64,000 bases of DNA, from the NCBI GenBank assembly GCA_947053595.1, contig CAMRSX010000007.1:7526-71525 (forward strand), written 5' to 3'. The notes beneath the pieces are model-generated. The model was not told the DNA's origin, did not search any database, and saw only the letters and a program-made list of their open reading frames with translations. Source of the DNA: an uncultured Clostridia bacterium. GTDB lineage: Bacteria; Bacillota; Clostridia; Christensenellales; UBA1242. The position numbers and the translations under genes were made by a program. Positions 20,225-62,263 of this stretch are shown piece by piece (position 1 is the stretch's first letter; each line of letters begins with the position of its first letter).

Positions 20225-21937
20225 ATGAAACTTGAAAATGGAATTGACCTTGACACCATTGTGCCAGAGAATGAGCTGGAAGAAGAAATTATTGCCGACC
20301 TGAAAAGTGGCAGAAGCAAAGAAGTCATCACCCGCTGCCCTCCAGAGCCAAGCGGATATTGGTATATTGGTCATGTGAAGGCGTGGACAATCAACTTTGA
20401 AACCGCGCAAAAGTTTGGCGGAAAAACCATTTTGCGCATGGACGACACCAACCCAACCAAAGAAGATGGCGAGTTTGCTGACAGCTATATGGCAGACCTT
20501 GAGTGGCTGGGCTTTAAACCAGAAAAACTGGTGTATGCAAGCGAAAGCTATTTTGACGACATATATAAAATTGCCGAAAAGATGATTGAAAATGGTGACG
20601 CCTATGTGTGCGAACTGACGGCAGAAGAGGTGAGCGCAACAAGAGGAACGTTGACTGAGCCGGGCAAAGAAAGCCCTTATCGCAATCGTACACCAGAGGA
20701 AAACTTGAAGCTGTTCCGACAAATGCGAGATGGAAAATTTCCTGACGGCAGCAAAACGCTGCGCGCCAAAATTGACATGGCTCATCCAAACATAAACATG
20801 CGCGACCCTGTAATGTATAAAATTTCAAGACAGCATCACTATCGTGTTGGCGACAAGTGGTGCATTTGGCCTCAATATGATTTTGTCCACCCAATGGAAG
20901 ACTGCCTTGAAGGCACAACCTACAGCCTTTGCGACAAGGGTTTTCAAGACCACCGCGTGGTGTATGAGTGGTTTGTTCAGCACGGCTGGGGCAAGAAATA
21001 TGCTCCAAAACAACGCGAATTTTCTCGTTGCGTGCTGGAAAATGTCCTCACTGGCAAAAGATGGCTGAAGCAGGTTGTCAACAGCGGGCTTGTGTCTGGC
21101 TGGGACGACCCCCGCTTTCCAACCCTTGTGGGCATCAGACGCCGCGGCTACACCGCCAAGGCTGTCAAAGATTTTGTCCGCTCTGTTGGCTGGGGCAACA
21201 CCATTGAAGTGACAGTGCCATATTCTGCGCTGGAATTTTATGTGAGAGAAGATTTAAACAAAATTGCCACACGCGCCATGGTGGTGCTGGACCCACTTAA
21301 AGTTGTCATCACAAACTATGAAGGCAGCGAAGAGATTGAAATTGACAACAACCCAAATGATGAAAATGCTGGAACTCACAAAGCCACCTTCTCCAATGTG
21401 ATTTACATCGAAAAGGAAGATTTTTCCCTCAATCCACCACCAAAATATAACCGTCTGGTGGAGGGCGGAATTGTGCGACTTAAAGGCGCATACATCATCA
21501 AATGCAACAAAGTTGTGTTTGCCGATAATGGCGATATTGACCATTTGGAATGCGAATACATTGCGGGCACAAAAAGCGGACAAGACAACAGTGGCATCAA
21601 GTGCAAAGGCACAATTCATTTTGTGAGCGCTGACAACTGCTTTGAAGTGACAATCAGAGATTTCAAAAATCTTGTTAAAGAAGAATTCAAATCCCCTGCC
21701 AAGGCACTTGCCGACGGCACTCCAATTGAGGAAATTTTGGAGCCAAACAGCATGACGCAGTCCACCGCTTTGGCTGAGAACTTCTTGAAAAGCGCAAAAG
21801 TGGAAGACAAATTTCAATTTATGCGCAAGGGCTATTATTGCGTGGACAAAGACAAGCACGATGGCCACCTTGTGTTCAACAAAACAATTTCACTTAAGGA
21901 TGGCTTCAAGCCATCTGGGGTGGCAACAAAGTTTTAA
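20225..21937 (+). CDS. glnS: glutamine--tRNA ligase
   Basis: RCPPEPSGYWYIGHVKA (HIGH region), LRMDDTNPTKED, GWDDPRFPTLVGIRRRGYT. The KMSKS position reads VLTGKR. It has a C-terminal beta-barrel anticodon-binding region. Confidence 0.9.
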   Translation: MKLENGIDLDTIVPENELEEEIIADLKSGRSKEVITRCPPEPSGYWYIGHVKAWTINFETAQKFGGKTILRMDDTNPTKEDGEFADSYMADLEWLGFKPEKLVYASESYFDDIYKIAEKMIENGDAYVCELTAEEVSATRGTLTEPGKESPYRNRTPEENLKLFRQMRDGKFPDGSKTLRAKIDMAHPNINMRDPVMYKISRQHHYRVGDKWCIWPQYDFVHPMEDCLEGTTYSLCDKGFQDHRVVYEWFVQHGWGKKYAPKQREFSRCVLENVLTGKRWLKQVVNSGLVSGWDDPRFPTLVGIRRRGYTAKAVKDFVRSVGWGNTIEVTVPYSALEFYVREDLNKIATRAMVVLDPLKVVITNYEGSEEIEIDNNPNDENAGTHKATFSNVIYIEKEDFSLNPPPKYNRLVEGGIVRLKGAYIIKCNKVVFADNGDIDHLECEYIAGTKSGQDNSGIKCKGTIHFVSADNCFEVTIRDFKNLVKEEFKSPAKALADGTPIEEILEPNSMTQSTALAENFLKSAKVEDKFQFMRKGYYCVDKDKHDGHLVFNKTISLKDGFKPSGVATKF

Positions 21938-22123
21938 ACGGCGACACGGCTTTGCCTAACGCCTAAAACTTCGTTTCCCCGTCCCACCTACCCCTTCAAT
22001 TAGGGAACATCTTTTGAAAAACCATTTGAAAGTTTTTTCAAAAGAGTTGACTTTAAAATTTGAAAGTTGCTATGCAACTTTAATATTATAAAGTGGTGGC
22101 AACAAAGTTTTAAACGGCGACAC
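21919..22123 (+). repeat. 29-bp perfect direct repeat (glnS 3' end incl. stop) flanking a 147-bp insert
   Basis: GGTGGCAACAAAGTTTTAAACGGCGACAC occurs at 21919-21947 and again at 22095-22123 (period 176 bp). The insert holds module B and hairpin 22011-22044. Confidence 0.75.
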
Positions 22124-22264
22124 AAAAATGTTTGTCTTATGTCATGCTGAGCGAAGTCGAAGCATCTCTAATTAAAGATAAAAGAAAAAATATGATTACA
22201 ATCCAACAAAATTGCCACGTTTGTGGCTTTTTTGTTGGACATTTTTTCAAAAATTGTATACAAT

Positions 22265-23026
22265 ATGTCTATGATTATTGCGGCAACTGTTTGTATGTTG
22301 GTGGCGTGCATCGCTTTGGCTGTTGGGCTTTGCTTTGCAAAGAAAAACAGACTGCTTTTTTTGCTGCTTTCAAATGCCGCACTTGTTGCCCTTGCCTGCC
22401 TTGGCGTTTGCTGCATGGCGCTGGCAAAAAACTTTTCGCTTGGGGGCATTTTCATTGTGCTGTGCATTGTTCCACTTTTTTTGAAAGTCAACTTTCCAAC
22501 TGAAGAAATGCCTCAAGAAAAACCAACAAATCCAGCCAACAATTTGCCAGAAAATTCGCAAGCTGACGCTGAAAACAACTCAAACACCTCAAAATTTGGC
22601 AAAAAACTTCAAAAATTTGGCAATTTGGCTGCAAGCGCAAGTTATTTTGCCTCCACATTGTTTCTTGCCCTCTGTGGGCTTGTTTATGGAAAAGAATCCG
22701 CATTTGGAATTTTGACCGGCGTTGCCATTGGGCTTATGCTCACCTTTTTGCACCTTCTGATTAAAAAAGAATATGTGGGCAAAACTGCCAAAGAGAATGT
22801 TTCGCTTTATCTTGAGAAATTTTTACACTTTGTCAGCATCGGACTGCTTTTAAGCAGCATTGTGGTGGTTTTTCTGTATTCCACAAGCCTTTCCAACATC
22901 TTCTTTTCACTTGGTGCACTTGCCTATGCCACTCACATCTTTTTGCAGGTCTACTTAAAAAACAACTTCAATCACCTCGCCCACCTTGCAGCCATGCTTC
23001 TGCTGTTTGCCTCCATTTTGTTTTAA
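22265..23026 (+). CDS. hypothetical multi-pass membrane protein (~253 aa)
   Basis: Several hydrophobic spans (MIIAATVCMLVACIALAVGLC, LLFLLLSNAALVALACLGVCCMAL, and others). The start is uncertain: GTG 22223, ATG 22265 or ATG 22271. ATG 22265 directly abuts TACAAT. Confidence 0.5.
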   Translation: MSMIIAATVCMLVACIALAVGLCFAKKNRLLFLLLSNAALVALACLGVCCMALAKNFSLGGIFIVLCIVPLFLKVNFPTEEMPQEKPTNPANNLPENSQADAENNSNTSKFGKKLQKFGNLAASASYFASTLFLALCGLVYGKESAFGILTGVAIGLMLTFLHLLIKKEYVGKTAKENVSLYLEKFLHFVSIGLLLSSIVVVFLYSTSLSNIFFSLGALAYATHIFLQVYLKNNFNHLAHLAAMLLLFASILF

Positions 23027-23052
23027 AAGCCACCTGTTTGGTGGTTTTTTTT
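23026..23052 (+). terminator. intrinsic terminator
   Basis: CCACC-TGTTT-GGTGG followed by T8. Confidence 0.6.
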
Positions 23053-23302
23053 ACACTTTTCTCACATTTGGCACTCTTTGCCATTTTTAAGGCGCTTAAA
23101 GCTTTAAGACACACAAGCGCAGGATGCAGTTTTTTTAATGTTCTTTTAATAAGTTGCTTCCTAAAAATCTTCCACTTAAAAAGTCACGACCAATTCGCCA
23201 GCGAAAGCGCGAATTGCGTTTGGTCGTGAATGAAAAAACAAGCCCAAAAGCGAAGCTTTTTGAACTTGTTCAAAAACAAGCACAGGGTGCAGTTTTTTCA
23301 TT

Positions 23303-23398
23303 TGGTTGCGAGGACAGGATTTGTCCCAGATTGCCCAGCCAATCGCCGACCCACAAAAGCTTTCCTGCCAAAGGGTCGAGCCTGTGACCTCCGGGTTA
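23303..23398 (-). pseudogene. tRNA-fMet 3'-half fragment interrupted by a 57-nt insert in the T loop
   Basis: 23303-23323 is identical to the last 21 nt of the real gene (TGGTTGCGAGGACAGGATTTG on the + strand). 23381-23398 (CCTGTGACCTCCGGGTTA) is identical to the T-stem/variable/anticodon-stem part. 57 nt with two hairpins lie between them. Confidence 0.6.
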
Positions 23399-23525
23399 GA
23401 CTCCGCTGCGCTTCGTGGCGTTCGCAAACGATGTTTGCTCGGCTTGAGCTCTCCGGCTCGCTACACCCGCCGGGCTGCATAACCCTAAAATAAAAAAAAA
23501 CTGCATCCTTTGATACAGTCTTTTT

Positions 23526-23602
<77 letters not shown>

Positions 23603-23612
23603 TCATGTTGTC

Positions 23613-23755: not shown

Positions 23756-25804
<2,049 letters not shown>

Positions 25805-25893
25805 GAAAAGTTCATGACGAGGAGTCAGGATGCAAACGACACCGAAGGTGGCATTTGCATAGAGACGACGAAGTCATATGGTTTGCGAAGGCA

Positions 25894-25941
25894 AAACATA
25901 TCGAAGAAAACGCAACTTTAGTCACCGACCTTGATGTATAA
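25894..25941 (+). pseudogene. orphan second copy of the gyrB 3' end (15 codons + stop)
   Basis: Encodes [15 protein letters not shown] against gyr[16 protein letters not shown]. The last 21 nt are identical to 25784-25804. Upstream differences are mostly third-position or synonymous. Confidence 0.65.
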
Positions 25942-35165: not shown

Positions 35166-38100
35166 CTATGCCGCAAGCACTTCAAACTGTTCTTGCAGTG
35201 AGTTGAGATATGCGTCATATTTGTCAATGTAAGACTGCATGTAAGCCGCTCTGAAATGCCCATTTGTGAAAATCAGTTTCCCGCCAAATGCCTCACCCGG
35301 CGTTCCGCCTTTGCTTGTGACAACTGCGCCAGCTTTGGTTGTGTAAGACTCTCCTTCCACAGAGTGGATGTCAATGTCAAGCGTCACGGCATCCATAATT
35401 TTAACAGAGGTGGCAAGGCTGTCAATGAAGCCATAATTTTTGTCCACCAGCTGATTTGCAGAGGTGAGATGTTTTCCTTGTGCGGAAACCGTTCCCAGCA
35501 CAACATCCATGTCAGTCGCTGTTGTGCCCATAAGGTTGGAGCCACTCACCTTCATCTTATAGCCCACAGGTGCAAGGTTGTCATCCAACAATTCGTTGAA
35601 ATCCAACAACACCCTTTCAATTGTTGGGTGAGCGTTGATGCTGGCAATAATCTTATCAATTGTTTCCATGCCTGTTTTGTTAAGCCCCATGATGTCTTGA
35701 ATGATTTGATTTATGCTTGTTGAAATTTCACCAGAATGATATGTCTTGTCAACAACTTTTTCCACCTTGGTCCACTTACTGAACAACCCTTCTGTGGTGT
35801 AATTGAACGCCTTCATGCCCAGCGCGCCGTCTTTATATTCCAGCACAACCGTTCTTGTGTCATAAGTTTTGTCAAGCAGCAGCCCCACCGCAAATGACAG
35901 CCAGCCTTCATACTTGATGTCAAGCTGAGCATAAAGCTGAAGCTCTCCTTCGTCTGAAATTGAAGCCAACAGGTCAAGTGCAATCTTAAACTTGATGGAG
36001 TTTATGATGTCCACACCAACTGTGCCTTGGAAGTTGAAGTTCTTTTGATTTGCCGTGTTAACTGCCGTATCCGTGAATTTTGGAAGGTTGTTGAAATCAA
36101 AATGCTGCACGCTTGTGTCATAATCAAATTCCGTTTCAGAAGTGAACTGATTGAATGAAATTGTGAAATTGATGACATTGTCTTGCATCACAAGATTTTC
36201 AATCACCAGTTTGCTTAGGCTGTATTTCATACCCTCGTCCGTCATAGTTCCGCGCACAATCAATTTGATTGTTGCAATGTCTTTGCCGGCATTTTGCGCG
36301 TCATTGGCTGCAACATCCAGCTTCAGCATCAAAGCAATTTCTTCCTCTGTCTGCAGCAAGCTGATTTGTTTAATCATTTTGGTGATGTTTTCAGCAGAGC
36401 TTAAAAGCCCATCCACCTTGGAGATTGTGTCCCCAATGTCTGCGCCCTCATCAGCACCAAGCAGTTTTCTTATGAAGCTGAAGTCTGTCAGCGTTTCATA
36501 AAGCCTCAATCCGCCTGACAACTTGTCGCCAAGTTTCATGCCCGTTGCGCCCACAATGAGAGAAATTATGTCTGTCATGTTGCTGTTTGAAAGCTTTGCA
36601 CGGAAATAGTTGCTTCCAATGTTGTTTGTTCCGTTCTCATCGCCTTTGTCGGTGTCATCCGCATAGTTGCTGTGAGTGTATGTGAAGTAAAGCCCATAAC
36701 CATTGCTTTGATATAACAAATCAATCAGATGCTCCACATCGCTGGCGTCAGGCGTTGTTCCGGTTTTAATGCCAAAACTTCCCTGAACATTAAGCTGCTT
36801 GCCTTCAAACAAATCCAAACCGCTTTCGCTTAAGATTGGATTGCCATTTTCATCTTTTGGCAAATCCTTCAGCTGCAAAGCAACATCACCGGCAATTTTT
36901 GTGGTGTGTGAAGTTGTCTTGTTGGAAATGGAGCCGTCCAGTGCCACCTTGTAAGCATAGCCATCTTCTTCATCTTCCAAAAGTGCATATTCCAGCACTG
37001 CTTTTGTGGCGTCAAGTAAAGTTTTGTAAGAAGTGAAATCTTCAAGCTTTGTGACGTTTTGGCTAACTTCCAGCCCGTCTTCGGCTGAAATCCAAGTTTT
37101 CACCTCCGAAACCTCTGACATGTTGGATGCAACTGCAGAGATTTGTTTGAAGCCAGCCACATCACTGAAGAAAGTTCTGTCCAAGCCCATCACAAACTCG
37201 CCAACATTGATGTTTGACAAATAGATTGCCAAGTTGCGATTGAGCGTGCTGCTTTCTTCGTCTGCCAATTTGTATTCCTCATAATTTTCATACAGCACTG
37301 TGTTGGCATCATGAATGTTTGCGCCAATCACAAGCTTTGTTGGCAGAATGGTGTTTTTGTAATTTTCAATCAAGAGTTGTGCAAAAATGTTATAGAACCA
37401 AGAGTTTTCGCCATATTTCAAAACATTTGCTTCACCGCCAAAGTCTTCAATGTTGTTTGAGAAAACTTCCACCGTTTTCATTTCGCCCGTTGCCTCATCT
37501 GCAACTTGCTTGTGAGAAACAATTTGGTTTCGTTCAACAAAGTTTCCAAGACAAATTTGAAGGCCGTTTTCCAGCCAGCTGCCATAAATGCGGTCAAGCG
37601 CTGGAAGCAGCACCTTAAACATCTGCATGGTTGTGTCAAGCACCGCTGCAGTGTTGGCAAAGTCTTGCCCAGCCTTGGCAAGTGTGACTTGTGCGTTTTT
37701 GTCAGTTTTCAGCAACTGACCAAGGTTGTTGTTTACAAAATCCATAACCTCTTGAATGGTGTTTTGTGATAGGTCAGCCACCAGCTGAAGACCATTGATG
37801 TCAATGTATAGGTTGTTTTCAATGATGTAGACATAAGTTGAAAGACCCAAAGATGTGGTGTGAAGCAAAACTGCTGGAGTGTAAGAAACGCTTCCTGTTG
37901 CCTTGTCAGTGTTTTTGACAACCATAACTGTCAGCTTCCCATAGAAAGTTGTGGTGCTGTATCTCACCGCAATGTCGCTGGTGAAAGCATAAACATCTTC
38001 TTGCACTTGCAAGCTGTCAATCATGCCGTCAATGATGTTTTGGCTATAGTCTTCAAACTCCTCTGCATCAAACTGCGAAATTGTGGAGTTTTGCACATGG

Positions 38101-41100
38101 TTCACCTTCAAGTTGCTGCTTATGCCGCCAAGCAAGTTGACATCAATGACATCCAACTTGTCTTCCGCAAAAGCAACCTCAATGCTGCCCAGTTTTGTGG
38201 AAAGCATGCCCGAATTGTTGAACAAACTGATGCTTAACTTTTCGAAGTTTCCAGAAAACTGCAGCACAAGTTTGTCAAAACAGTCAGAAAGGGTGTAATT
38301 TTCTGCAATGTCCAAAAGCTGATTGAACACACCAAAATCAACCACAAAACCAAACCTTCCAGAAGTGAGGTTGTTGATGGTTTCAAACACATCCACTTGC
38401 TTGCCCGAAGAAGAGATGTTTGTTTTGATTTTCATGTTGCCATAAGCAACATACACCAACCCTTCATGCACGCGCACGCTGAACTTTTCGCCGCACACAT
38501 TGTTGCAAGAAATTTCAATTTCGCCGTTGTAATATTTAAACTTTCCAACTTCAGTTTGCTTGTCAATCACATTCCAGCCGTTGTAAGCAAAAGTGAAATC
38601 AAATTCAAACACTCCCGCTTTAACATAGTCCACAAGATTTTTGATTTTTGGAAGCAGCAAAAGCGCATCTTGCGCATCTTCAGGAAGCTTCTCTTGCAAA
38701 ATTTGCTGTTCGTCAAGCAGCATCACTTGAATGCGCAGTTTGTCAGAAATCACATAGTTAAACTGCAACTTTTGTCCGTCCACCGAAAGCAAGTTGCCTT
38801 CAAGTGCAAAAACCTTCAAGATGTCCACCGCATTCAAGTCAAGCGTTTTCAAAAGGCTTAAGAACGCATTTTTGTCAAACTGCGAGGAAGGAATTTCCAG
38901 ATTAAACACTTGCAAAATTTCCTCAAACAGTTGTTTTGCATTGCAAAGGTCTGCCTTCAAGAAAAGTTCGCCCAGCTGGAAACAAACAACATTGTCCCAA
39001 ACAATCAACTGCACATCTTCGCCAAACAGCACGGTTTTTGCAGAGAAATAAATTTTGTCAGTGAGTTCCAACTGAATGTCAAAAGTCAGTTCCAGTGTTT
39101 TTGTCAAGCCATCTTCCACATATCCAACTTCCATTTTGGCTGTGCCAGAGTGCGCGGATGTGAGGTTGTAATATTCTTGTTCACTTTCCGCTTCCATTTC
39201 AAAATTAACAATTTCAGCAACCAGTGTTGCGCTGTTTTGCAGTGTCAACATAAAGCCATGCAACACGTCTTCTTCAAACAGCACTTCCACGTTTGCAGAC
39301 ATAGGATTTTGAGTGTTAAACAAAATGTCCACACCCAAGCCAAACATGTTTGCATAAAGCGCATAGCTGCTGTTTCTTATGTTCACAGAAAGTTTTTCCA
39401 AAAGCTGCAAAGCGGAAAGATTTGAAACATCTTCTCCAAAAATTTTGTCAAGCAGCCATCTTATCGCGTCAAGTTGTTCCACTTCTTGCAAGCTTTCATC
39501 CTCAGCGCCTTCTTGCAAAGCTTCAGCTTTAAAGCCAAAGTTGTCTGCCGCCACTGCCAAGATGATTTCAGAAAGCTGGCTGGCTTTGTCTGCCTCAAGC
39601 TTAAGTTTTCTGCCACCATAGTTCACAAAAAGCCAACCATTTTGGCATCTGATTTGCAACTGATTTCCGCCAATCTTGCAAACATCAATTTCAAAGATGT
39701 TTTGCGTTAAATCAATTTTGACTGTTCCAGAAAGAGAGATGTTGTTAAATTCAAAGCCAAAGTTAAAAGCATATTGCTTGCCTTCAAAATAAGTTTTTGC
39801 GCTTTCAACTTTGTTAAGCACGCTTTCAAAACTTTGCGTTGCCTGTGGCAAAACCACAACATCGTTGCAAGAGTGCAAAGTGAAATTCAACAAGCCATTT
39901 GCCAGCTGCGCATCCACCTTCAATGTGTTGTTTTCCACAGAAAGTTTTGCAACTTCGGCAACGCCGTCTTCCATAAGCATCTTAACCACTGCCAGAGAAT
40001 CTTTGCCCCCAACAAGTTCAACCTTGTCAAAGACATCTTTCACAAATGCCATAACGCACTCTGCATTCAAAGCGCCAAAAGAACCCACTTCCAAATCAAA
40101 CAGCTCTTGAATTCTTTTTGCATAGCTTTCCATTTCGCTCAGCTTGCCTGCCACAACCAGCTCTCCAAGCGCAAGCAGAATGTCAGCATCTGCTTTGCCT
40201 TCTGTGTCCGCAAAATTGTGATTGACAAAAATCTGCAAGTTTTCTTTCAAAGCAGTTGTGTAAAGCCCAACGCGCACTTCGCGTTCGTTGAAATTCACCA
40301 CATAATCAAAAGCCAGTTCTTGATTTTCTTGTGTGGAAAAGACAACTTTTCCGCCAAACTTTTTGGTTGTCAAAACTTCATCCAAAACGGAAGTTAGTGG
40401 CAAAAGGCTAATCAAATCATAGAAATTCTCTTCAACCACAATTCCGTCATCAGATGGCGCAAAAGCAAGCAAAACCTTCACATCATCACAGCTCACCAAA
40501 ACGCTTTCCAGCATTTCGTCTTGTTGCTTCAGCACAATGCAAAGCTCTTCACCTTCCAAATCAGCCACATCCCAGCGCATTGTGAAATCATTGCCTTGCA
40601 AAAGCGTGGAAGAAGGAAGATATGCCTTCAAAGAAACTTCCGAAGAAACCCCGGAAAGAAGACTTTTCAAAATTTGCTTGCCATCCAAATCAATGTTGGC
40701 ATAGCGCGCAATAATCTCTTTCACAATTTCAGCCACAGTTTTGTTTGTGTGTTTTTCAACAATCTGGTCAATTTCACTTGCCCACTTTTTGCAGTCTTCC
40801 ACCAAAAGCTTAAGTTTAAGATTCCCCGCCTGCAAATATATGGTTTCATCACAATATGTCAGCGCAATTTCAAGCCCAGCATAATCAGTTTCAAAGCGCA
40901 CCTTGATGGAGTCTTCAAAATCAAACAGCACTTTTCCGCAAAGCGAAAGGGTCTCTTTGTTTGCCATTGGCACTTGCAAAGCAATGTCCGCGCTCACAAA
41001 TTTATTGTTTGTAAACAGTTTTTGAGCATATCCCGCATAAAGCGCAATGCCACTGAGGTCAATTTCCTCTCCGCTTGGGATGTAAGAAACTTCAACCTCG

Positions 41101-42002
41101 CTTTTTTCGCCCGTCATAACTTGCGTGTCGTTCATTCTGTTGACATTGGCATGGAAGGACAATGCGTTGTTTTCAATCAAAACATCATTCACCGTTCGTG
41201 CGCAAACAATGTTATAATTTTGGTCACAGACAATTTGAGCATAAACAAGGCTGCCCAACCTGATTCTCACATCATAGCCCGTTCTCACACCAAAGTTCTG
41301 GAAATATTTTTCATCATCTTCAAAAGGCTTAGATTCCGAAGTGTCCAGCTTGGCCGCCAGCGACTGAATGTCAATGTTTTCAAGGTCTTCAATGCCAATT
41401 GCTTTGGCAATGTCGTCCACAAAACTCAAATCAATGTCCAAAGCTTGGGCAACAAAACCCAAAATTTGCATCACGCCAACACTTTGCTTTGCTTCTTCTT
41501 CAGCTGCCTCTTTGGTTTTGCCTTGCTTCAGCGCGGCCTCTTCGTTTTTTGAATAACCAATGCCAGCAACAGATGTGATGTCAAACTTATATGTGTTTCC
41601 CTCAATGCTTAAAAACACATTTGGCACAACATAGGTTGCCAGCACATCATATGTTTTTTGATTATAGCCAAGTTTCAAATCCAGCAAAATCCCGCTTTGG
41701 TCATAAATCACCTTGCCATCCAACGAAAGGCTAACCTTCTTTTGTGCGTCAGTGAAGTTAAGTGCAATTTGCGCATCAATGTTTTGCAAGGACATCATGT
41801 TGATGACAAAGTCACCAAAAATGTTTTCTTCGCCAGCGGCTGCATCTTGATTTGGCGTTTCCGGAATTTGTGGAGATAGGTGTCCAACATATTCAATATA
41901 GCCAAAGAAAGCAAACAGCGTCACAAAGATGTAAACGGTGAAAACTCTAAACAATTTTGGGAAAAGTGTGTTTGGTTTTTTGATATGTCTTTCTTCCATC
42001 AC
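35166..42002 (-). CDS. giant hypothetical membrane-anchored protein (2278 aa)
   Basis: Uninterrupted ORF with an N-terminal anchor FRVFTVYIFVTLFAFFGYI. The rest is acidic, N/D/L/V-rich and beta-like with no recognisable motif. The start overlaps the stop of 41999-43042 (ATGA). Confidence 0.75.
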   Translation of the reverse strand: MMEERHIKKPNTLFPKLFRVFTVYIFVTLFAFFGYIEYVGHLSPQIPETPNQDAAAGEENIFGDFVINMMSLQNIDAQIALNFTDAQKKVSLSLDGKVIYDQSGILLDLKLGYNQKTYDVLATYVVPNVFLSIEGNTYKFDITSVAGIGYSKNEEAALKQGKTKEAAEEEAKQSVGVMQILGFVAQALDIDLSFVDDIAKAIGIEDLENIDIQSLAAKLDTSESKPFEDDEKYFQNFGVRTGYDVRIRLGSLVYAQIVCDQNYNIVCARTVNDVLIENNALSFHANVNRMNDTQVMTGEKSEVEVSYIPSGEEIDLSGIALYAGYAQKLFTNNKFVSADIALQVPMANKETLSLCGKVLFDFEDSIKVRFETDYAGLEIALTYCDETIYLQAGNLKLKLLVEDCKKWASEIDQIVEKHTNKTVAEIVKEIIARYANIDLDGKQILKSLLSGVSSEVSLKAYLPSSTLLQGNDFTMRWDVADLEGEELCIVLKQQDEMLESVLVSCDDVKVLLAFAPSDDGIVVEENFYDLISLLPLTSVLDEVLTTKKFGGKVVFSTQENQELAFDYVVNFNEREVRVGLYTTALKENLQIFVNHNFADTEGKADADILLALGELVVAGKLSEMESYAKRIQELFDLEVGSFGALNAECVMAFVKDVFDKVELVGGKDSLAVVKMLMEDGVAEVAKLSVENNTLKVDAQLANGLLNFTLHSCNDVVVLPQATQSFESVLNKVESAKTYFEGKQYAFNFGFEFNNISLSGTVKIDLTQNIFEIDVCKIGGNQLQIRCQNGWLFVNYGGRKLKLEADKASQLSEIILAVAADNFGFKAEALQEGAEDESLQEVEQLDAIRWLLDKIFGEDVSNLSALQLLEKLSVNIRNSSYALYANMFGLGVDILFNTQNPMSANVEVLFEEDVLHGFMLTLQNSATLVAEIVNFEMEAESEQEYYNLTSAHSGTAKMEVGYVEDGLTKTLELTFDIQLELTDKIYFSAKTVLFGEDVQLIVWDNVVCFQLGELFLKADLCNAKQLFEEILQVFNLEIPSSQFDKNAFLSLLKTLDLNAVDILKVFALEGNLLSVDGQKLQFNYVISDKLRIQVMLLDEQQILQEKLPEDAQDALLLLPKIKNLVDYVKAGVFEFDFTFAYNGWNVIDKQTEVGKFKYYNGEIEISCNNVCGEKFSVRVHEGLVYVAYGNMKIKTNISSSGKQVDVFETINNLTSGRFGFVVDFGVFNQLLDIAENYTLSDCFDKLVLQFSGNFEKLSISLFNNSGMLSTKLGSIEVAFAEDKLDVIDVNLLGGISSNLKVNHVQNSTISQFDAEEFEDYSQNIIDGMIDSLQVQEDVYAFTSDIAVRYSTTTFYGKLTVMVVKNTDKATGSVSYTPAVLLHTTSLGLSTYVYIIENNLYIDINGLQLVADLSQNTIQEVMDFVNNNLGQLLKTDKNAQVTLAKAGQDFANTAAVLDTTMQMFKVLLPALDRIYGSWLENGLQICLGNFVERNQIVSHKQVADEATGEMKTVEVFSNNIEDFGGEANVLKYGENSWFYNIFAQLLIENYKNTILPTKLVIGANIHDANTVLYENYEEYKLADEESSTLNRNLAIYLSNINVGEFVMGLDRTFFSDVAGFKQISAVASNMSEVSEVKTWISAEDGLEVSQNVTKLEDFTSYKTLLDATKAVLEYALLEDEEDGYAYKVALDGSISNKTTSHTTKIAGDVALQLKDLPKDENGNPILSESGLDLFEGKQLNVQGSFGIKTGTTPDASDVEHLIDLLYQSNGYGLYFTYTHSNYADDTDKGDENGTNNIGSNYFRAKLSNSNMTDIISLIVGATGMKLGDKLSGGLRLYETLTDFSFIRKLLGADEGADIGDTISKVDGLLSSAENITKMIKQISLLQTEEEIALMLKLDVAANDAQNAGKDIATIKLIVRGTMTDEGMKYSLSKLVIENLVMQDNVINFTISFNQFTSETEFDYDTSVQHFDFNNLPKFTDTAVNTANQKNFNFQGTVGVDIINSIKFKIALDLLASISDEGELQLYAQLDIKYEGWLSFAVGLLLDKTYDTRTVVLEYKDGALGMKAFNYTTEGLFSKWTKVEKVVDKTYHSGEISTSINQIIQDIMGLNKTGMETIDKIIASINAHPTIERVLLDFNELLDDNLAPVGYKMKVSGSNLMGTTATDMDVVLGTVSAQGKHLTSANQLVDKNYGFIDSLATSVKIMDAVTLDIDIHSVEGESYTTKAGAVVTSKGGTPGEAFGGKLIFTNGHFRAAYMQSYIDKYDAYLNSLQEQFEVLAA

Positions 42003-53109: not shown

Positions 53110-53153
53110 GTAAATGCTTCCACTGCGCTCAGCATGACATTTCTGTGCCCGCG
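53110..53153 (-). repeat. intergenic repeat module A, third copy
   Basis: The reverse complement reads CGCGGGCACAGAAATGTCATGCTGAGCGCAGTGGAAGCATTTAC, compared with 18240-18285. Confidence 0.5.
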
Positions 53154-53713: not shown

Positions 53714-54523
53714 TCAGCAACAGCTTGCGTTGTTGAAGGTTTTCCAAGCAGTGTTTTGATATTTTGCAAAGTTGTTTATTGTCACCTCGTTTGGGGATAT
53801 TTTGCCCAAATCTTCCCACAAAATTGGCATGGAGATGGGGGCGTGCGCCCTTGCCCTGACAGAATATGGTGCAACGCAGGTTGCACCTTTTTTATTGCGC
53901 AAAAAATCCACAAAAACTTTGCCCTTGCGGCGCTCTTTTCTTATGTTGGTTGTAAAAATTTGCGGCCACTTCTGCTGAGCAACCATGGCAATTTGTTTGG
54001 AAATCTCTTCAAACTGTTGCCAATTTTTGCTGGGCAGCTTGGCAACCACATGATAGCCCTTCCCTCCGCTTGTTTTTAAAAACGAATCAATTTCCAGCTC
54101 GTCCAAAATGAATTTAATTTTCAAAACCGCTTCCCGCAAGACCTTAAGTGGCATGGCGGTGTCGGGGTCTAAATCAAACACCATGACATCCGGTTTGTTT
54201 ATTGCATCAACGCTGCTTGCCCAAGTGTGAAACTCCACAGTGCCAAGCTGCACTTGATTGACAAGCTCTTGTGCGGTTTTGATGTAAAAATATTCATGCT
54301 GTTCCACCTTCTTCACATGCACCAAGTTGTCCGAATTTGGATGCTTTTTAAAAAAGACATTTGCGTCCACATTGTCGTGGCAGCGAATGACGCTTAAAAG
54401 CCTGTTTTCCACATATGGCAGCATGAGAGGTGCAACACTGATGTAATAGTTCATCAAATCCAGCTTTGTTATGCCGTCTTTCACAAACAAAACCTTTTCT
54501 GGACTGGTGATTTTAATTTCCAT
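53714..54523 (-). CDS. ligD: LigD polymerase/primase domain protein (NHEJ)
   Basis: ITSPEKVLF..GITKLDLMNYY..APLMLPYVENRLLSV.R, VFDLDP and KTSGGKGYHV motifs. Overlaps the upstream ligase ORF by 11 nt. Confidence 0.8.
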   Translation of the reverse strand: MEIKITSPEKVLFVKDGITKLDLMNYYISVAPLMLPYVENRLLSVIRCHDNVDANVFFKKHPNSDNLVHVKKVEQHEYFYIKTAQELVNQVQLGTVEFHTWASSVDAINKPDVMVFDLDPDTAMPLKVLREAVLKIKFILDELEIDSFLKTSGGKGYHVVAKLPSKNWQQFEEISKQIAMVAQQKWPQIFTTNIRKERRKGKVFVDFLRNKKGATCVAPYSVRARAHAPISMPILWEDLGKISPNEVTINNFAKYQNTAWKTFNNASCC

Positions 54524-56081
54524 TTTCTTTCTCCAATTTCACGCTTTTTGCCGCCTTGTCTGTTCTTAAGCCCACAAAAACTGGCTGGCGCAGCACATCA
54601 TCTTTTGTCAGCTGAGCAAACTTGATTTGTGCCACCAGCTGCGGCACAAGCCATGTGACATTTGAAAGCTTTGGACGGCTGGCAAATGGGCAGGTTTTGC
54701 TTTGAAGTTTTTCAAATTTTTTGCGCAACTGCTCTTTTGTTTTTTCATCAAAACCTGTGCCAACCTTGCCCACAAACACCAAAGCGTCATCACGATAATA
54801 TCCCAGCACAAGTGCACTTAAGACCTCATTTTTCTCGCTGGTTGTGAAGCCAGCAACAACAAACTCTTGCATGTTTGCACACTTGATTTTAAGCCAATCC
54901 TCATTCCGCTTGCCAAGATATAAGGAAGTTGCTTTTTTTGCCACAATGCCTTCCAACTGATTTTTGCAGGCAAACTCAAAGCTTTCTTTGCCGTCTTTCA
55001 CATGTTGCGAATAAATTAAATTTGCTTGGCAATCAAACAAAAGCCGCTCCAACTTTTGTTTGCGCACCTCCAGCGGCAAAAGGCGCAAATCCTCACCATT
55101 TTGTGCAAGCAAGTCAAAAATTACATAAAAGAAATTGTTTTGTTTTTGCTTGATTGCCGTCTGCAGTCTTCCAAAATCCGAGCGTCCCAATTCATCAAAA
55201 ACCACAACTTCGCCGTCCACAACAAAGGAAGTCTGGTCAATTTGCTGCAGCGCTTTTGCAATGCTTTCAAACTTGGCGGAATAGTTTTGCCCGTTTCTTG
55301 AAAGCAGTTTAACCTTGCCATCTTCTTTAAATGCAAGCATGCGGAAGCCGTCATATTTAATTTCAAAAATCCAGTCCTTGCCAGTTGGAATTTTGTTAGT
55401 CAGCGCGCAAAGTTGGCAATTTGCTGTCAAAAATGGCAGTTTTGTTTGCTTTTTATCATCTTTTTTGGCAAACTCGTCACTTATTTTCATGATAAACCAG
55501 TTGCTGTCTTTTGTTTTGATAAGCTGCCATGCGCCTTTCAGCTTGTCTCCATTCAGCACAAATTTCAGATGCCCATGCTTTAAACCATCTTCAAAATTTT
55601 TGATTGGAAGATATGTCCCCTTATCAAAAATCTCCACAGTGCCGGCGCCATAGTTTCCCTTTGGGATGATTCCTTCAAAAGTTATATAATCAACTGGATG
55701 GTCTTCCACCATCACAGCCAAGCGCTTTGTTTTGGGGTTTGTGGACAGCCCCTTTGGCACCGCCCAACTTAAAAGCACGCCGCCATATTCCAAGCGAAAA
55801 TCAAAATGCTTTGCGCGTGCCTCATGATATTGAATGACAAATCTCTTCTCTTCCTGCTTTTCTTTCAAATTTTTGGAAGTTTTGTCACCAGCTTTGTTTT
55901 TGTCTTGCTTAAGGTTTTTGTTTGCCGCTTTGTTGACAAAACTGTCAGCATTTTCCTCTTTGCTGGCGGCTGTGCTCGCGCTTTGTTTGCTGTTGGTTTT
56001 GGCTGCCGTTTTGGAAGTTTTGCCGCTGGGCTCGGTTGTGGAAGCAAAGTTGCGCTTTTGTTGATATTTTTTCAAGCTCAT
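54513..56081 (-). CDS. ligD: LigD 3'-phosphoesterase + ATP-dependent DNA ligase domains (NHEJ)
   Basis: PE domain: YQQKRNF..TTEPSG, FVIQYHEARAKHFDFRLE, SWAVPKG. Ligase domain: the adenylation motif EIKYDGFR. A K/A/S-rich low-complexity insert lies near the N-terminus. Confidence 0.85.
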   Translation of the reverse strand: MSLKKYQQKRNFASTTEPSGKTSKTAAKTNSKQSASTAASKEENADSFVNKAANKNLKQDKNKAGDKTSKNLKEKQEEKRFVIQYHEARAKHFDFRLEYGGVLLSWAVPKGLSTNPKTKRLAVMVEDHPVDYITFEGIIPKGNYGAGTVEIFDKGTYLPIKNFEDGLKHGHLKFVLNGDKLKGAWQLIKTKDSNWFIMKISDEFAKKDDKKQTKLPFLTANCQLCALTNKIPTGKDWIFEIKYDGFRMLAFKEDGKVKLLSRNGQNYSAKFESIAKALQQIDQTSFVVDGEVVVFDELGRSDFGRLQTAIKQKQNNFFYVIFDLLAQNGEDLRLLPLEVRKQKLERLLFDCQANLIYSQHVKDGKESFEFACKNQLEGIVAKKATSLYLGKRNEDWLKIKCANMQEFVVAGFTTSEKNEVLSALVLGYYRDDALVFVGKVGTGFDEKTKEQLRKKFEKLQSKTCPFASRPKLSNVTWLVPQLVAQIKFAQLTKDDVLRQPVFVGLRTDKAAKSVKLEKENGN

Positions 56082-56083
56082 GT

Positions 56084-56848
56084 TTATGCCCTCTTTTTGC
56101 TTTCCAAGCTTTTCTTTAGGGCATCCATAAGGTTGATAACCTTAACTGGTGCTTTCTCTTCCTTCGCCTCCACCACCTCGTTGCCAGAAATCTTTTGCTT
56201 TATTGCTTTTTGCAGGCGAATGTAATATTCATCCCGATATTTTTCTGGCTCAAACTTTCCCGTCATCTGACCAATCAGCGACTTTGCCAAGTCCACCTCT
56301 TGCTTTGTGGTTTTGGGTTTTTCCAAAGTGGCCGGCGGCTGAATTTCGTTTGCAAAATAGAGGGTGTTTACAAGCATATGTCCATGATTGACATGAAGCA
56401 ATATCAAGGTTTCTTTGGTGCCCAGCACTGTTTTTGCAATGCCCGCCTTGTTGGCACTTTCCATGGCCTTCAACAGCACATGAAACGCCTTGTCTGCACC
56501 TTGCGGTTTGACATAATATGCGCGGTCAAAAAAGATTGGGTCCACCTCTTTCAAATCCACAAACTTCTCAATGGTTATATTTTTGTCTTTGGAAGTTTTA
56601 AGTTTTTCAAAATCCTCCTCAGTAAAGATGACATATTTGTCCTTTTCATATTGATAGCCCTTGACAATGTCCTCGTTTTTGATTTCCTTATCTTCACAAT
56701 CCACGCAGGTTTTCTTATATCTCACCCTTGATTTTGTCTTTTTTTCCAACATATTGAAGCCAATGTCTTGCTCTTTAACACACTGCGACAGCGTTATTGG
56801 AATAAAAACCAGTCCAAAGCTGATTGCGCCCTTATACGAATATGCCAT
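56084..56848 (-). CDS. ku: Ku DNA end-binding protein
   Basis: YKGAISFGLVFIPITL, DIVKGYQYEKDKYV, FDRAYYV. ATG 56848 is better spaced from GAAGGAGA than ATG 56854. Confidence 0.9.
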   Translation of the reverse strand: MAYSYKGAISFGLVFIPITLSQCVKEQDIGFNMLEKKTKSRVRYKKTCVDCEDKEIKNEDIVKGYQYEKDKYVIFTEEDFEKLKTSKDKNITIEKFVDLKEVDPIFFDRAYYVKPQGADKAFHVLLKAMESANKAGIAKTVLGTKETLILLHVNHGHMLVNTLYFANEIQPPATLEKPKTTKQEVDLAKSLIGQMTGKFEPEKYRDEYYIRLQKAIKQKISGNEVVEAKEEKAPVKVINLMDALKKSLESKKRA

Positions 56849-57048
56849 ATCCATTCTCCTTCAACATATTTTGCACAAAAAACGCATGTTTTATGTCCAG
56901 CGCTTTAACTTATGGCAGCTTTTGGGAACCTTTTTATATGTTTGTTTCTTGCAGTCTTGCAACAAAACTTCAGCCAAACACACTTGGGGCAGCTTTCCCA
57001 TATAATGTTATTGATTACGAAAAGTAATCAAAATTACAGGAGATGAAA

Positions 57049-58553: not shown

Positions 58554-58730
58554 GCATGGCAAAACTTCGTTTGTGCCTTGTTTTCAAAATTTATTTTGAA
58601 AAACAGCAGTAACACTCGTTTTTGCCATTTAGCGACCAAACGAAATCGCACTTATGTTTGCGATTTGTCGCAACTCTCTTTCGAAGAACTTTCTTCGAAC
58701 AAAACTCACAAAGACGGACATAAAACCTCG

Positions 58731-58905: not shown

Positions 58906-58908
58906 TAT

Positions 58909-59008: not shown

Positions 59009-59028
59009 AATAGCAAACAGGAGAAAAC

Positions 59029-60573: not shown

Positions 60574-60657
60574 CTTTTCTCTCCTTATACTTTTGTATTA
60601 TAACATACTCTTGTTAAAAATGCATCATTTTTTATAAAAAATTCATTTTGGGATTCT

Positions 60658-60714
60658 GGCGTGTGCTTGTCTTATACGAGCGCCTTCGCTTCGCTCGGCA
60701 GACAGGCACACGCC
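60658..60714. repeat. 57-nt compound palindrome
   Basis: Outer arms GGCGTGTGCTTGTCT (60658-60672) and AGACAGGCACACGCC (60700-60714). Inner stem CGAGCG (60677-60682) / CGCTCG (60692-60697). Confidence 0.6.
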
Positions 60715-61107
60715 TTTAATTAACTTTGTTGCAAAAGAGCGGTTGCTGGCGGAGCATAACGCAATTCGCTCTTTTGTTTTTTGTTTTCCTCTCTCTATTT
60801 TCTAGTGTAAGCGAGTATTCTTTGTTGTCAAGGTTAAAGTGCATGTCTAAGTCTTCTCAAGTGAATTATTCACACGACAACCTATGACAACGGCAGAATT
60901 ATTCGCTTTTTGGGCAGTTAATAGAGAGCAAGGGAAAAAAGGAAACATAGGCCTGTTTTGGTCTATGTTTTTCTTTGTTTTTCTGCTAGTTTCAAAATTG
61001 AGTGACTAAAATCTTGCTCTTTTTTTTCATGCTTTGAATGCAAGCATATCTTTGATTGCATGCTTTCAGCTTGTTGGCTTTACTGCAATGCCTGAAGTTT
61101 GAAGCAA

Positions 61108-61497
61108 TTAAAAAGCATAATCGTTTTTATACAAGCCCAGCGAATAATATTCCGCAACCAGACGAATCACTTCTGCTGTGGTTGGCTTGTGCTCGGCCTT
61201 CAAAACTTCCATGCCATACAGCTTGTTGATGAAGCCAAATCCCTTGGTTTTGTATGTAAAAGCAATGGCGTTGTGCATATTCGCTTCCACCCTAAAAAAG
61301 TCTTTTGCCCCACACTTTTCGGCAACAATGGTAAACAAGCGCCTAAGGTCGTGGATAAGCTCGGGGTTGACAATAACCTCCTTCACCGATTGCGTCAAAA
61401 ATGTAAACCCCACATGGTCACACTTAATTCCAATCCTTATTAGTGTCAGTTTGACAACCTTTTCAATTTCCTTTTCGGTTTCGACAATGTTTTCCAT
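61108..61497 (-). CDS. stand-alone Spo0A C-terminal (effector/DNA-binding) domain protein, no receiver domain (129 aa)
   Basis: IRIGIKCDHVGFTFLTQSV...LFTIVAEKCG...RVEANMHNAIAFTY...INKLYG...HKPTTAEVIRLVAEYY aligns by eye with B. subtilis Spo0A [20 protein letters not shown]...LYPDIAKKFN..RVERAIRHAIEVAW..SSLFG..AKPTNSEFIAMVADKL. GGAGG RBS before ATG 61497. Confidence 0.7.
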   Translation of the reverse strand: MENIVETEKEIEKVVKLTLIRIGIKCDHVGFTFLTQSVKEVIVNPELIHDLRRLFTIVAEKCGAKDFFRVEANMHNAIAFTYKTKGFGFINKLYGMEVLKAEHKPTTAEVIRLVAEYYSLGLYKNDYAF

Positions 61498-61740
61498 ATT
61501 TTGCAACCTCCAATCCATAAGTTCCGCACAAAGCGTCATATTTGGACATAGTTTAACACAAAAAAACAAAAATGCAAAATAATTTTTCAATATTTTACAA
61601 ATTAATTTGAAAAATTTTGTAATTCTAACTCAGTCAACAATAAAAAATGTTCCCAAAACATCGTTATAAGACATATTTTCATAATTTCTAACCCGCCCTC
61701 CTTAATCCGCAATTTTTACAAAAAGAATTAAACAAAGCGC

Positions 61741-62172
61741 CCACCCGTTCAAATCCCACTCCTCAGTCTGCGGTTTTTGAATTAAACAAATCAAAAAAAG
61801 CACAGGCCTTTTCTTTTGGCGGAAACGGTGGGATTCGCTCCGCGGTCTGCCCGTCACAGATGGCTCTTGCCGCTTTCACGCCGGGGTGGGATAACGCAGC
61901 ACTGCTGCCTTTTCTTTTCCACCCGTTCGAATCCCACTCCTCAGTCTACAGTTTTTCAGTTAAACAAATTAAAAAAAGCACAGGCCTTTTCTTTTGGCGG
62001 AAACGGTGGGATTCGCTCCGCGGTCTGCCCGTCACAGATGGCTCTTGCCGCTTTCACGCCGGGGTGGGATAACGCAGCACTGCTGCCTTTTCTTTTCCAC
62101 CCGTTCGAATCCCACTCCTCAGTCTACAGTTTTTCAGTTAAACAAATTAAAAAAAGCACAGGCCTTTTCTTT
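61741..62172 (-). repeat. tandem array: two perfect 178-bp units plus a diverged partial unit, each starting with the 3'-terminal 21 nt of tRNA-Ser(CGA)
   Basis: Units 61817-61994 and 61995-62172 look identical. The partial copy is 61741-61816. The unit start TGGCGGAAACGGTGGGATTCG equals the first 21 nt (+ strand) of the adjacent tRNA gene. Confidence 0.85.
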
Positions 62173-62263
62173 TGGCGGAAACGGTGGGATTCGAACCCAC
62201 GTGCCAGTTCCCTGACAACCGCATTTCGAGTGCGGCTCGGTGCGACCTCTTCGATACGTTTCC
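62173..62263 (-). tRNA. tRNA-Ser (CGA)
   Basis: GGAAACGTATCGAAGAGGTCGCACCGAGCCGCACTCGAAATGCGGTTGTCAGGGAACTGGCACGTGGGTTCGAATCCCACCGTTTCCGCCA. Type II, 3-bp D stem, long variable arm. Confidence 0.9.

Follow-up and report, generated by a model that had tools for sequence, protein, structure and literature searches.

The 64-kb window examined here, that is, the whole stretch of DNA that was analysed (64,000 nt, 41% GC), comes from an uncultured gut Clostridia lineage whose genome was seen over these 64 kb alone, and it raises a simple question: why do four of its genes, glnS, tRNA-fMet, gyrB and tRNA-Ser(CGA), have a second copy of a 3'-end sequence a short distance downstream? A sequence-only reading of the window had reported these copies on the same strand as the genes and downstream of them, at distances of 176, 223, 137 and 178 nt, respectively, and all four were present as described. 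Specifically, the whole window was scanned exhaustively for direct repeats that are exact over at least 16 nt and spaced by 30-400 nt, and this yielded these four loci, an internal gyrA repeat and two tRNA-Gln paralogues, and nothing else; therefore, the non-paralogous local repeats in the 64 kb all start in gene 3' ends. The chance expectation for one 21-nt repeat at such spacing is about 5e-6 (64000 x 370 / 4^21). The four loci have a common layout, in which an intact gene is followed by a short protein-less insert (90-200 nt) and then by a second copy of the gene end, and the duplicated target segments are 9-97 nt long and target-specific. We read them as miniature, protein-less, non-autonomous insertion modules that belong to several unrelated families and are mobilised in trans, and we give this reading about an even chance of being correct.

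For comparison, we used 80 species-level metagenome-assembled genomes (MAGs) labelled Candidatus Caccovivens, Christensenella or Clostridia, in which GyrB is 71-92% identical to that of the window; the DNA analysed was the 10 kb on each side of gyrB (1.36 Mb in total, with labels L001 etc.). Note that all sequences were short-read MAG or metagenome assemblies. Local direct repeats outside open reading frames (ORFs) in the relatives were mostly tRNA-3'-end units of the same kind, and they added tRNA-Glu (L034) and tRNA-Ile (L051) to the targets. Three kinds of junction were seen: within the anticodon loop, at T-loop position 55/56, and within the final codons of ORFs. Near-identical units stood in tandem at the window's tRNA-Ser, in the relatives L003, L007, L013, L047 and L011 (five units), and in L440. 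The inserts had been called hairpin-rich, and folding against shuffled sequence agreed with this for gyrB (z = -4.9) and tRNA-Ser (z = -3.3); the tRNA-Ile insert of L051 also folded beyond its shuffled counterparts (z = -4.8). When the window's four inserts were compared with each other, no common sequence was found, in line with the earlier view that they are unlike each other and represent more than one family. In L001 (20482-20560), we also observed that the last 19 nt of an ORF (AAAAAAGAATTGGCATAAG) are repeated 49 nt downstream, with a shorter third copy in between, and this may be a minimal version of the gene-end theme at another protein gene.

The gyrB locus shows such an insertion at a protein gene (coordinates of all features are listed in Table 1). 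The 21-nt exact core (25784-25804) at a distance of 137 nt was confirmed, but the repeat really covers 48 nt at 83% identity, and its differences are mostly synonymous. Among the relatives, insert and copy together were found in L001 and L006 only, and L008 has the insert with a decayed copy; in the remaining relatives, the next gene directly follows the gyrB stop codon. The four gyrB inserts (window, L001, L006 and L008) form one family, TTYATGACRAGRAG...GTCATA, with covarying internal stems. The two gyrB ends of L001 differ by 6 nt across 5 codons, all 6 differences being synonymous, and when the window's two gyrB copies were compared with relatives, the similarities were 0.80 versus 0.75. 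A gene 3'-end copy 137-223 nt downstream could also be expected from a diversity-generating retroelement, which has a variable repeat at the gene 3' end and a template repeat downstream. However, the gyrB differences are not adenine-specific, with only 3 of the 8 at an A in the downstream copy, Pfam searches of about 40 window ORFs detected no reverse transcriptase, and the targets are tRNAs and housekeeping enzymes, so that the chance of this explanation is negligible; the mismatch pattern and the missing enzyme led us to rule it out.

At tRNA-fMet, the copy at 223 nt was present as an exact 23-nt repeat (23524-23546 versus 23301-23323, 100%). Rather than the 21-nt end that had been supposed, it represents the whole 3' half of the tRNA from the anticodon loop, split in the T loop by a 54-nt insert. 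A tRNA-fMet gene lies near gyrB in about 45 relatives, about 18 of which carry a copy of its 3' part 65-216 nt downstream, and the inserts at this gene fall into at least five unrelated classes (A-E); the class A core of the window is common to L003, L007 and L052. Comparison of occupied with empty sites, as the sequence-only reading had envisaged, gave an insertion polymorphism with exact boundaries. Specifically, in the empty sites of L001 and L008 the flank AATGAAAAAACTGCAC stands immediately after tRNA-fMet, and in the five occupied sites (window, L014, L020, L026 and L032) terminator, inverted copy, core and tRNA copy are placed exactly before this flank. On the gyrB tree, the insert classes show a patchy distribution, with classes B and C each present in five lineages (separate ones in the case of class B) and class E shared by the window and the distant L014. 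The tRNA-fMet copy of L020 has a compensatory T stem (CAGTGG/CCACT versus CACAGG/CCTGT) and the copies of L002 and L026 are chimeric, suggesting that the tRNA-fMet copies derive from other functional alleles. Judging from the synonymous differences at gyrB and the compensatory T-stem differences at tRNA-fMet, the downstream copies appear to have evolved elsewhere as functional gene ends. The recurrent process that had been proposed thus finds support in the empty and occupied sites, the patchy classes, the arrays, the foreign-looking copies and a re-targeted family described below.

The other two repeats also turned out to be more than had been noted. The 21-nt repeat of tRNA-Ser at 178 nt is part of a tandem array of 178-nt units (61741-62274), comprising two units and a decayed partial third, and the repeat between the tRNA-Ser locus and the gene-proximal unit includes the 21-nt tRNA end and reaches about 76 nt into the flank. 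Each unit begins with a trailer, continues with a 13-nt inverted copy of T loop/T stem (GTGGGATTCGAAC) and a core of 87 nt, and ends in the tRNA's last 21 nt; no canonical terminator of tRNA-Ser lies ahead of the array. A small ORF (61108-61590, minus strand) with only the C-terminal DNA-binding domain of Spo0A adjoins the array. As for glnS, the 29-nt repeat exists but is not the gene's own end: it is not conserved as glnS sequence, since the protein ends with ...KDGFKPQK (stop) in relatives and with ...KPSGVATKF (stop) in the window. Because the ends differ in this way and the native glnS terminator and promoter lie about 300 nt farther downstream, the last codons of glnS have been replaced by the insertion, and the repeat belongs to the element and not to the gene. 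It also has a degenerate inverted copy, which lies 16 nt past the first repeat copy. Three findings go beyond the sequence-only reading: the target is also copied in inverted form, a folded core is conserved, and the glnS repeat comes from the element. Two further repeats were observed around glnS: the 63-nt AT-rich palindromic repeat in the insert (21997-22059) recurs downstream of secA (7574-7636) at 84% identity on the opposite strand, and a REP-like hairpin TGTCATGCTGAGCGAAGTCGAAGCATCTC has three window copies (22140-22168, 18253-18281 and 53114-53140), one of them inverted and one just past the glnS repeat.

The tRNA-Ser array and the glnS locus could be described formally as a 178-nt and a 176-nt tandem duplication, respectively, and tandem copy number is unreliable in short-read assemblies, which would fit local duplication or slippage, or an artefact of MAG assembly. 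Nevertheless, such an origin is extremely improbable, as dozens of assemblies made independently in different studies show these architectures again, the copies at gyrB and tRNA-fMet carry synonymous or compensatory changes, and the inserts are foreign sequence rather than copied local DNA. Copying of mature tRNA by a reverse transcriptase was also rejected, given that the duplications run 10-76 nt past the CCA end.

We looked for machinery that could have moved these sequences. The modules contain no ORF, and Pfam searches of about 40 window ORFs (about 15 of them without any Pfam match) detected no integrase, transposase or reverse transcriptase domain, consistent with the earlier statement that the window holds no integrase or transposase. 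Beside tRNA-fMet in relatives, Pfam detected no recombinase among 10 ORFs, with Fic, SHOCT, YpsA and similar found there, and no autonomous parent element sharing the attachment (att) arms was seen in the 64 kb or in the 10 kb on each side of gyrB in relatives. Initial scans of IMG/VR with 14-18-nt motifs were swamped by chance matches, and more specific motifs were used instead; searched with these exact motifs, which have limited sensitivity, IMG/VR gave no real match to class S (the tRNA-Ser insert family, see below), the class B pattern or the clade's tRNA-fMet end, and a single, likewise insensitive blastn query with one class S unit matched nothing in phage and plasmid collections.

These results bear on the two candidates that the sequence-only reading had put forward, decay of large integrative elements and a small non-autonomous element carrying a copy of its target end. 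Under the former, prophages, integrative and conjugative elements (ICEs) or islands would have integrated at gene ends and later been reduced to their att-proximal arms. Duplication of the target 3' end at tRNA sublocations and ORF ends is indeed an integrase signature, and the surroundings of tRNA-fMet are hypervariable among relatives, where the tRNA can be flipped and accessory genes such as Fic and SHOCT occur. On the other hand, random decay is not expected to give one 100-190-nt architecture at 30-60% GC, and near-identical tandem units are left unexplained. Furthermore, among the matches listed, class S was never found as the far end of a large island and its units all stand at most about 75 nt from a tRNA or tmRNA; exact-motif searches of IMG/VR revealed no viral contig with the class S motif, the class B pattern or this tRNA-fMet end, and no integrase stands beside tRNA-fMet in the relatives checked. 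We therefore think scars of large elements very unlikely, and the small-element candidate fits better because the 100-190-nt architecture recurs at 30-60% GC, adjoins its target and did not turn up when viral, phage and plasmid collections were searched. A related candidate, accretion beside big integrative elements with the repeats after tRNA-fMet (L012, L018, L019, L036, L037, L047 and L066) serving as integrase arm sites, was rejected after Pfam showed no integrase and no distal tRNA copy was present.

The surroundings of tRNA-fMet showed other variation as well. In the glnS-gyrB interval of L001-L066, tRNA-fMet lies on either strand relative to gyrB depending on the species, 0.2-3 kb off, and the accessory genes beside it vary, including Fic (L019, L021, L029 and L066), SHOCT and YpsA; the interval is a rearrangement hotspot. 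In addition, a structured repeat that we call class F stands behind several tRNAs, with a long hairpin AATGAAAAAAC...GTTTTTTCATT followed by CACGACCAAACGCAATTCGC...GCGAATTGGTCGTG. It occurs in the window at 23183-23300 (minus strand) and, after tRNA-Gln, at 58554-58680 (+), and in relatives after tRNA-Glu in L034 (2645-2760) and after tRNA-fMet or tRNA-Glu in L001, L008, L020, L026, L032 and L050. We treated class F as native sequence next to tRNA-fMet, but it may be an element of tRNA flanks in its own right, one that lacks a target copy.

Table 1. Features of the four loci in the window (DR, direct repeat).
Locus	Feature	Position	Strand	Remarks
glnS	DR1, 29 nt	21919-21947	+	over glnS stop codon; codes C-terminal extension ..GVATKF (stop), lacking in relatives
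glnS	Insert, 147 nt	21948-22094	+	degenerate inverted DR1 copy at 21964-21986
glnS	Insert, palindromic repeat	~21997-22059	+	
glnS	Insert, promoter-like site	22060-22089	+	
glnS	DR2, 29 nt	22095-22123	+	100% identical to DR1, distance 176
tRNA-fMet	Intact initiator tRNA gene	23526-23602	minus	DR1 is its 3' part; consensus promoter 23642-23613
tRNA-fMet	Intrinsic terminator borne by insert	23493-23525	minus	directly 3' of tRNA-fMet; missing at empty sites L001, L008
tRNA-fMet	Class A insert	23399-23486	minus	inverted target copy AGGGTTATG 23478-23486 (anticodon-loop region) and GC-rich core 23399-23477
tRNA-fMet	DR2a	23378-23398	minus	tRNA copy, anticodon loop to T stem 5' strand; 95% identical
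tRNA-fMet	Class E insert, 54 nt	23324-23377	minus	nested in T loop of tRNA copy; class also in distant L014
tRNA-fMet	DR2b	23301-23323	minus	T loop to CCA end and 2 nt; then flank that adjoins tRNA in empty sites
gyrB	DR1	25757-25804	+	last 15 codons and stop codon
gyrB	Insert, 89 nt, structured	25805-25893	+	same family as L001, L006, L008 inserts behind gyrB
gyrB	DR2	25894-25941	+	second gyrB end, 8 nt different, 6 synonymous
tRNA-Ser(CGA)	Intact tRNA gene	62173-62263	minus	DR1 is the last 21 nt, 62173-62193, from T-loop position 56
tRNA-Ser(CGA)	Class S unit 1, 178 nt	61995-62172	minus	trailer, then inverted target copy, core, DR2
tRNA-Ser(CGA)	Unit 1, inverted copy	62103-62115	minus	
tRNA-Ser(CGA)	Unit 1, three-way-junction core	62016-62102	minus	
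tRNA-Ser(CGA)	Unit 1, DR2	61995-62015	minus	
tRNA-Ser(CGA)	Class S unit 2	61817-61994	minus	97% identical to unit 1
tRNA-Ser(CGA)	Unit 2, inverted copy	61925-61937	minus	
tRNA-Ser(CGA)	Unit 2, core	61838-61924	minus	
tRNA-Ser(CGA)	Unit 2, DR3	61817-61837	minus	
tRNA-Ser(CGA)	Third unit, partial, decayed	61741-61816	minus	trailer and inverted copy (61747-61759, one mismatch); unrelated DNA beyond

The tRNA-Ser insert is one member of a widespread family, class S. Its core joiners are also conserved in the inserts behind tRNA-Glu of L034, L032 and L066, and metagenomes were scanned with the exact motif GAACGGG N25-55 CCCCGGCGTGANAG, the first 120 stretches among the matches listed being taken as the sample and chance matches on proteobacterial tRNA genes being discarded. 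Among the matches listed, class S has at least 65 distinct members, each of which has the orientation of a tRNA or tmRNA gene and follows it at a distance of 40-75 nt; they are 102-192 nt long, carry at least 46 distinct target copies and occupy host loci of 30-60% GC. They all follow one order, again among the matches listed (inverted T-loop copy, GAAC, stem P2, CGGCGTGAWAG, stem P3, CGG(A/C)G, target from position 56), and the junction lies in the T loop throughout, with GGTT|CGAAT in the gene and GGAG|CGAAT in the copy. Note that the invariance of the joiners is not independent evidence, because the search motif itself imposes their conservation. The tRNA targets include Ser, Glu, Arg, Gly, Pro, Leu, His, Val and Ala (at least 9 types and at least 17 anticodons), so one core has been re-targeted to many tRNAs and to tmRNA. 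Tandem arrays were frequent and were found in L440 (four full units and a truncated fifth), L427 (three units), and L421, L404, L380, L381 and L387 (two each). In the window, a scan with the class S model R1 detected the two tRNA-Ser units only (62002-62118 and 61824-61940), at 92.6 bits, a score that is inflated as R1 was partly built from the window unit.

The class S fold is a three-way junction closed by the inverted target copy, in which stems P2 and P3 covary. The inverted and direct copies vary with the T loop of the target, as seen at column pair 10:152 (UA 17, CG 5, GC 4 and AU 4). In 51 of 62 members (p = 4e-9), the sense strand gave the more stable fold, its advantage over the antisense strand averaging 4.3 kcal/mol, and 5 of 5 copy variants within the closing helix P1 retain a G.T wobble pair, indicating that the fold belongs to one strand, either as RNA or as single-stranded DNA (ssDNA). 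At many loci, the inverted copy mirrors the tRNA end and trailer around an intervening terminator, and in L344 a perfect 21-nt inverted copy gives a palindrome of about 100 nt; given this palindromic layout, the inverted copy can pair with either direct copy. A hammerhead core was fitted by eye to the gyrB and class S junctions and rejected, as the joiners do not match.

Other readings of class S units were examined and discarded. Apparent orphans that might have marked the far ends of large islands sit behind tmRNA or other tRNA-like 3' ends; left halves lacking a nearby right half, as expected of cargo within stem P3, are rare and look truncated; and the candidate cargo genes past the truncated L440 unit encode WYL regulators, not recombinases. 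A few members stand behind a tRNA-like 3' end called by neither ARAGORN nor Rfam. Specifically, the units in L331, L394, L418 and L350 follow a T-arm and acceptor-like 3' end (e.g., AGGGGTTCGAATCCCTTATCGTTCGCCA), which may be an unrecognised tRNA-like RNA or the leftover copy of another element class. We also observed a different architecture in L066 (1-760), where 165-nt tandem units combine a T arm resembling that of tRNA-Glu with a terminator and with the acceptor end of tRNA-Glu in inverted form. Moreover, the mini-hairpins GCGAAGC and GCGAAAGC and the triloops C-GAA-G and C-AGT-G recur in class S stem P3, the class A core and class B/C hairpins (for example, in L332, L404, L387, L007 and L011), and TAGCGA lies within a conserved class S joiner. 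We take the GCGAAGC/GCGAAAGC mini-hairpins and the C-GNA-G triloops to be typical of very stable DNA hairpins, and the recurrent mini-hairpins and TAGCGA presumably resemble the CS-6 box of plasmid single-strand origins.

A strand-specific, covarying fold also raises the question of whether the inserts are simply functional structured RNAs made with the upstream gene, the inverted copy of class S being a switch, processing or decoy element. The covarying junction, the sense-strand bias with its wobble-preserving variants and the ability of the inverted copy to pair with either direct copy would all suit such an RNA, as would the structure at the tRNA-His site, which is maintained across diverged gut species, and the units placed within tRNA operons that have no terminator, e.g., Pro-[S]-Arg in L400, together with the window's tRNA-Ser, likewise without a canonical terminator. 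However, units are present sporadically among close relatives and the occupied tRNAs differ between genomes, arrays hold as many as 5 identical units and their distal copies decay, a strong intrinsic terminator precedes the class A insert and the majority of class S units, and at least five unrelated cores share one odd architecture at a single tRNA. Rfam 15, searched with gathering and E-value thresholds, matched nothing but tRNAs in the window, in the regions of the inserts and at the class S loci from metagenomes; no match overlapped class S units at E <= 1, and none over the gyrB, glnS and tRNA-fMet inserts was credible at E <= 10. On this balance, a host-serving RNA is rather unlikely.

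Under the insertion-module reading, events would proceed as follows. A module consists of a short structured core and a copy of the 3' end of its target gene, to which the tRNA and glnS types add an inverted copy of the target sequence. It would recombine with the identical stretch at the resident gene end, and a crossover within the shared segment would leave the gene intact, the module DNA behind it and the second gene-end copy downstream. Arrays would be built by repeated events or by unequal exchange between direct copies, with older distal units decaying. Since a module does not encode an enzyme, the enzyme would act in trans, and the strand-specific folding of class S suggests that a single-stranded form, ssDNA or RNA, is recognised; mobilisation thus probably involves a single-stranded intermediate.

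Several points weigh against this reading. Mobility is deduced from comparative patterns only, because no mobilising enzyme, circular junction or excision product was seen, and a double-stranded circle of 100-180 bp would be physically awkward. The spacer from gene end to inverted copy is unconserved within class S, whereas a fixed circular attP-like unit should keep it; the units in terminator-less tRNA operons count in the same direction, and the compensatory evolution of class S across species fits a host-useful RNA too. The copy numbers of the tandem arrays are uncertain because the assemblies are all short-read. In addition, an inverted target copy was looked for in the gyrB insert and none was found; because gyrB has no such copy and the glnS repeat is not gene sequence, the four cases may not share one mechanism.

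Spread might also do without a recombinase, through natural transformation and RecA, with the gene as left arm, the downstream copy as right arm, and arrays arising by unequal crossing-over. In keeping with this, the targets are all highly conserved housekeeping genes, no recombinase was found among the window ORFs or the tRNA-fMet neighbours in relatives, the searches of viral, phage and plasmid collections did not find the modules, the chimeric T stems of L002 and L026 are compatible with exchange inside the shared segment, the spacers are variable and host-like, and the window has the competence gene comEC. Even so, at 9-29 nt the right arm would be very short by the standards of RecA, the folded cores, the inverted target copy and the strand bias are not explained, one core gaining target copies for many tRNAs is not accounted for, and no drive for wide spread is supplied. 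We consider this explanation decidedly unlikely.

A further reading, tentative and on balance improbable, can be put forward for class S, and other classes would follow by analogy. Here, class S would be a protein-free module, either mobile or regulatory, that base pairing makes programmable, and whose conserved, T-shaped three-way junction presents a 7-21-nt guide, the inverted copy, to the T-loop-to-CCA segment of any tRNA or tmRNA and toggles between the gene end and its own copy. The reader would be an unlinked single-strand enzyme (a HUH/Rep-like nickase, a reverse transcriptase, or a tyrosine recombinase with folded ssDNA as its substrate) or the tRNA-processing machinery. If this holds, class S would represent a new type of insertion system directed by a guide, or else a new type of riboregulator working on tRNA/tmRNA 3' ends.

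Regarding the other genes of the window, Pfam identified prfA, prmC, ssb, secA, ychF, a sigma factor, glnS, gyrB/gyrA, a UvrD-like helicase, hisS, metG, a TrmA-like methyltransferase, holA, comEC and a Ku-LigD end-joining operon. The last is complete (53714-56854, minus strand), with LigD primase-polymerase, LigD phosphoesterase and ATP-dependent ligase, and Ku; it is unusual for a small gut Clostridia genome and could bear on DNA-end joining near the inserts. Two giant ORFs, 10688-16960 (+, 2090 aa) and 35166-42002 (minus strand, 2278 aa), gave no Pfam match at E < 1e-4 when scanned in halves.

These modules would matter for practical and biological reasons. Partial tRNA copies are a standard computational signal of genomic islands, and a large population of 100-200-nt modules giving the same signal would confound island finders. 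It would also mean that the most conserved genes of gut bacteria carry a layer of DNA, selfish or regulatory, that has escaped annotation. Class S, which has dozens of members, a single conserved core, and inverted and direct copies that match the target, can serve as a test system for how integrase-less elements reach tRNA/tmRNA genes and whether base pairing can set targeting. If an unlinked enzyme does read the fold, a compact, re-targetable insertion tool might be derived from it; if the fold acts as RNA, it would be the first switch-like element on tRNA or tmRNA 3' ends.

Among known systems, the closest are integrative elements with tyrosine integrases at tRNA/tmRNA genes. Williams reportedly set out a scheme of integrase sublocations in these genes in 2002, and we take the junctions found here (anticodon loop, T loop and ORF end) to be the classical sublocations; duplication of the target's 3' end by integration is textbook knowledge. 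The modules resemble such elements in using 3' tRNA/tmRNA or ORF ends, leaving the gene intact with a partial copy downstream, having junctions in the anticodon or T loop, and occupying one site in tandem, and the flanking direct repeat of the target 3' end is present. They differ in being 90-200 nt long, without integrase or cargo, in carrying a folded core and an inverted target copy, in their unconserved gene-end spacer, and in their absence from the viral, phage and plasmid collections searched: Pfam found no tyrosine or serine recombinase of their own, and exact motifs and one blastn query found no attP in phage, plasmid or viral sequence. Cis-mobilisable elements (CIMEs), such as the derivatives of ICESt1/ICESt3 at the fda 3' end, are att-flanked and integrase-less. 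The modules likewise have att-repeat flanks at a gene 3' end and no recombinase of their own, and CIMEs are presumably moved by the enzyme of another element; CIMEs, however, are kilobases long and come from a recognisable parent ICE, whereas the modules are 10-100 times smaller.

Folded ssDNA sites, such as integron attC and the CTX-phi attP, leave the order direct copy, spacer, inverted copy, loop, direct copy after integration. The modules would share with attC and with the CTX-phi attP(+) hairpin used by XerCD a strand-specific fold, paired arms that may rebuild the site duplex, variable and covarying central hairpins, and the predicted product order direct copy, cargo, inverted copy, loop, direct copy. 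The sense bias and the wobble variants favour a single-stranded fold, for RNA and ssDNA alike. Unlike those sites, the modules have no R/L boxes, dif or ORF, and their target is the tRNA T or anticodon loop; the conserved ..TCGAAC, CGGCGTGAWAG and CGGAG are neither attC boxes nor dif, and no IntI is encoded in the window. MITEs (miniature transposable elements with inverted repeats) and REPINs are similar in size, non-coding nature, strong structure, multiplicity of families and, presumably, dependence on an enzyme in trans. The modules are instead gene-end-specific and each carries a target-end copy of 9-48 nt; in place of the terminal inverted repeats and short fixed target-site duplication of MITEs, their inverted repeat copies the target and not the element's other end. 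The bridge RNA of IS110 and the EBS-IBS (exon-binding site-intron-binding site) pairing of group II introns also use a target-complementary segment that changes with the target. The modules have no DEDD recombinase or intron-encoded protein and, by Rfam, no intron or bridge-RNA structure, and their complementary segment pairs also with the element's own target copy. Full-text literature yielded no published description of such modules, the class S core sequence itself included. What appears new here, on the sequences compared, is thus a set of 100-200-nt protein-less modules that combine a conserved three-way junction with target-matched inverted and direct copies at many tRNAs and tmRNA.

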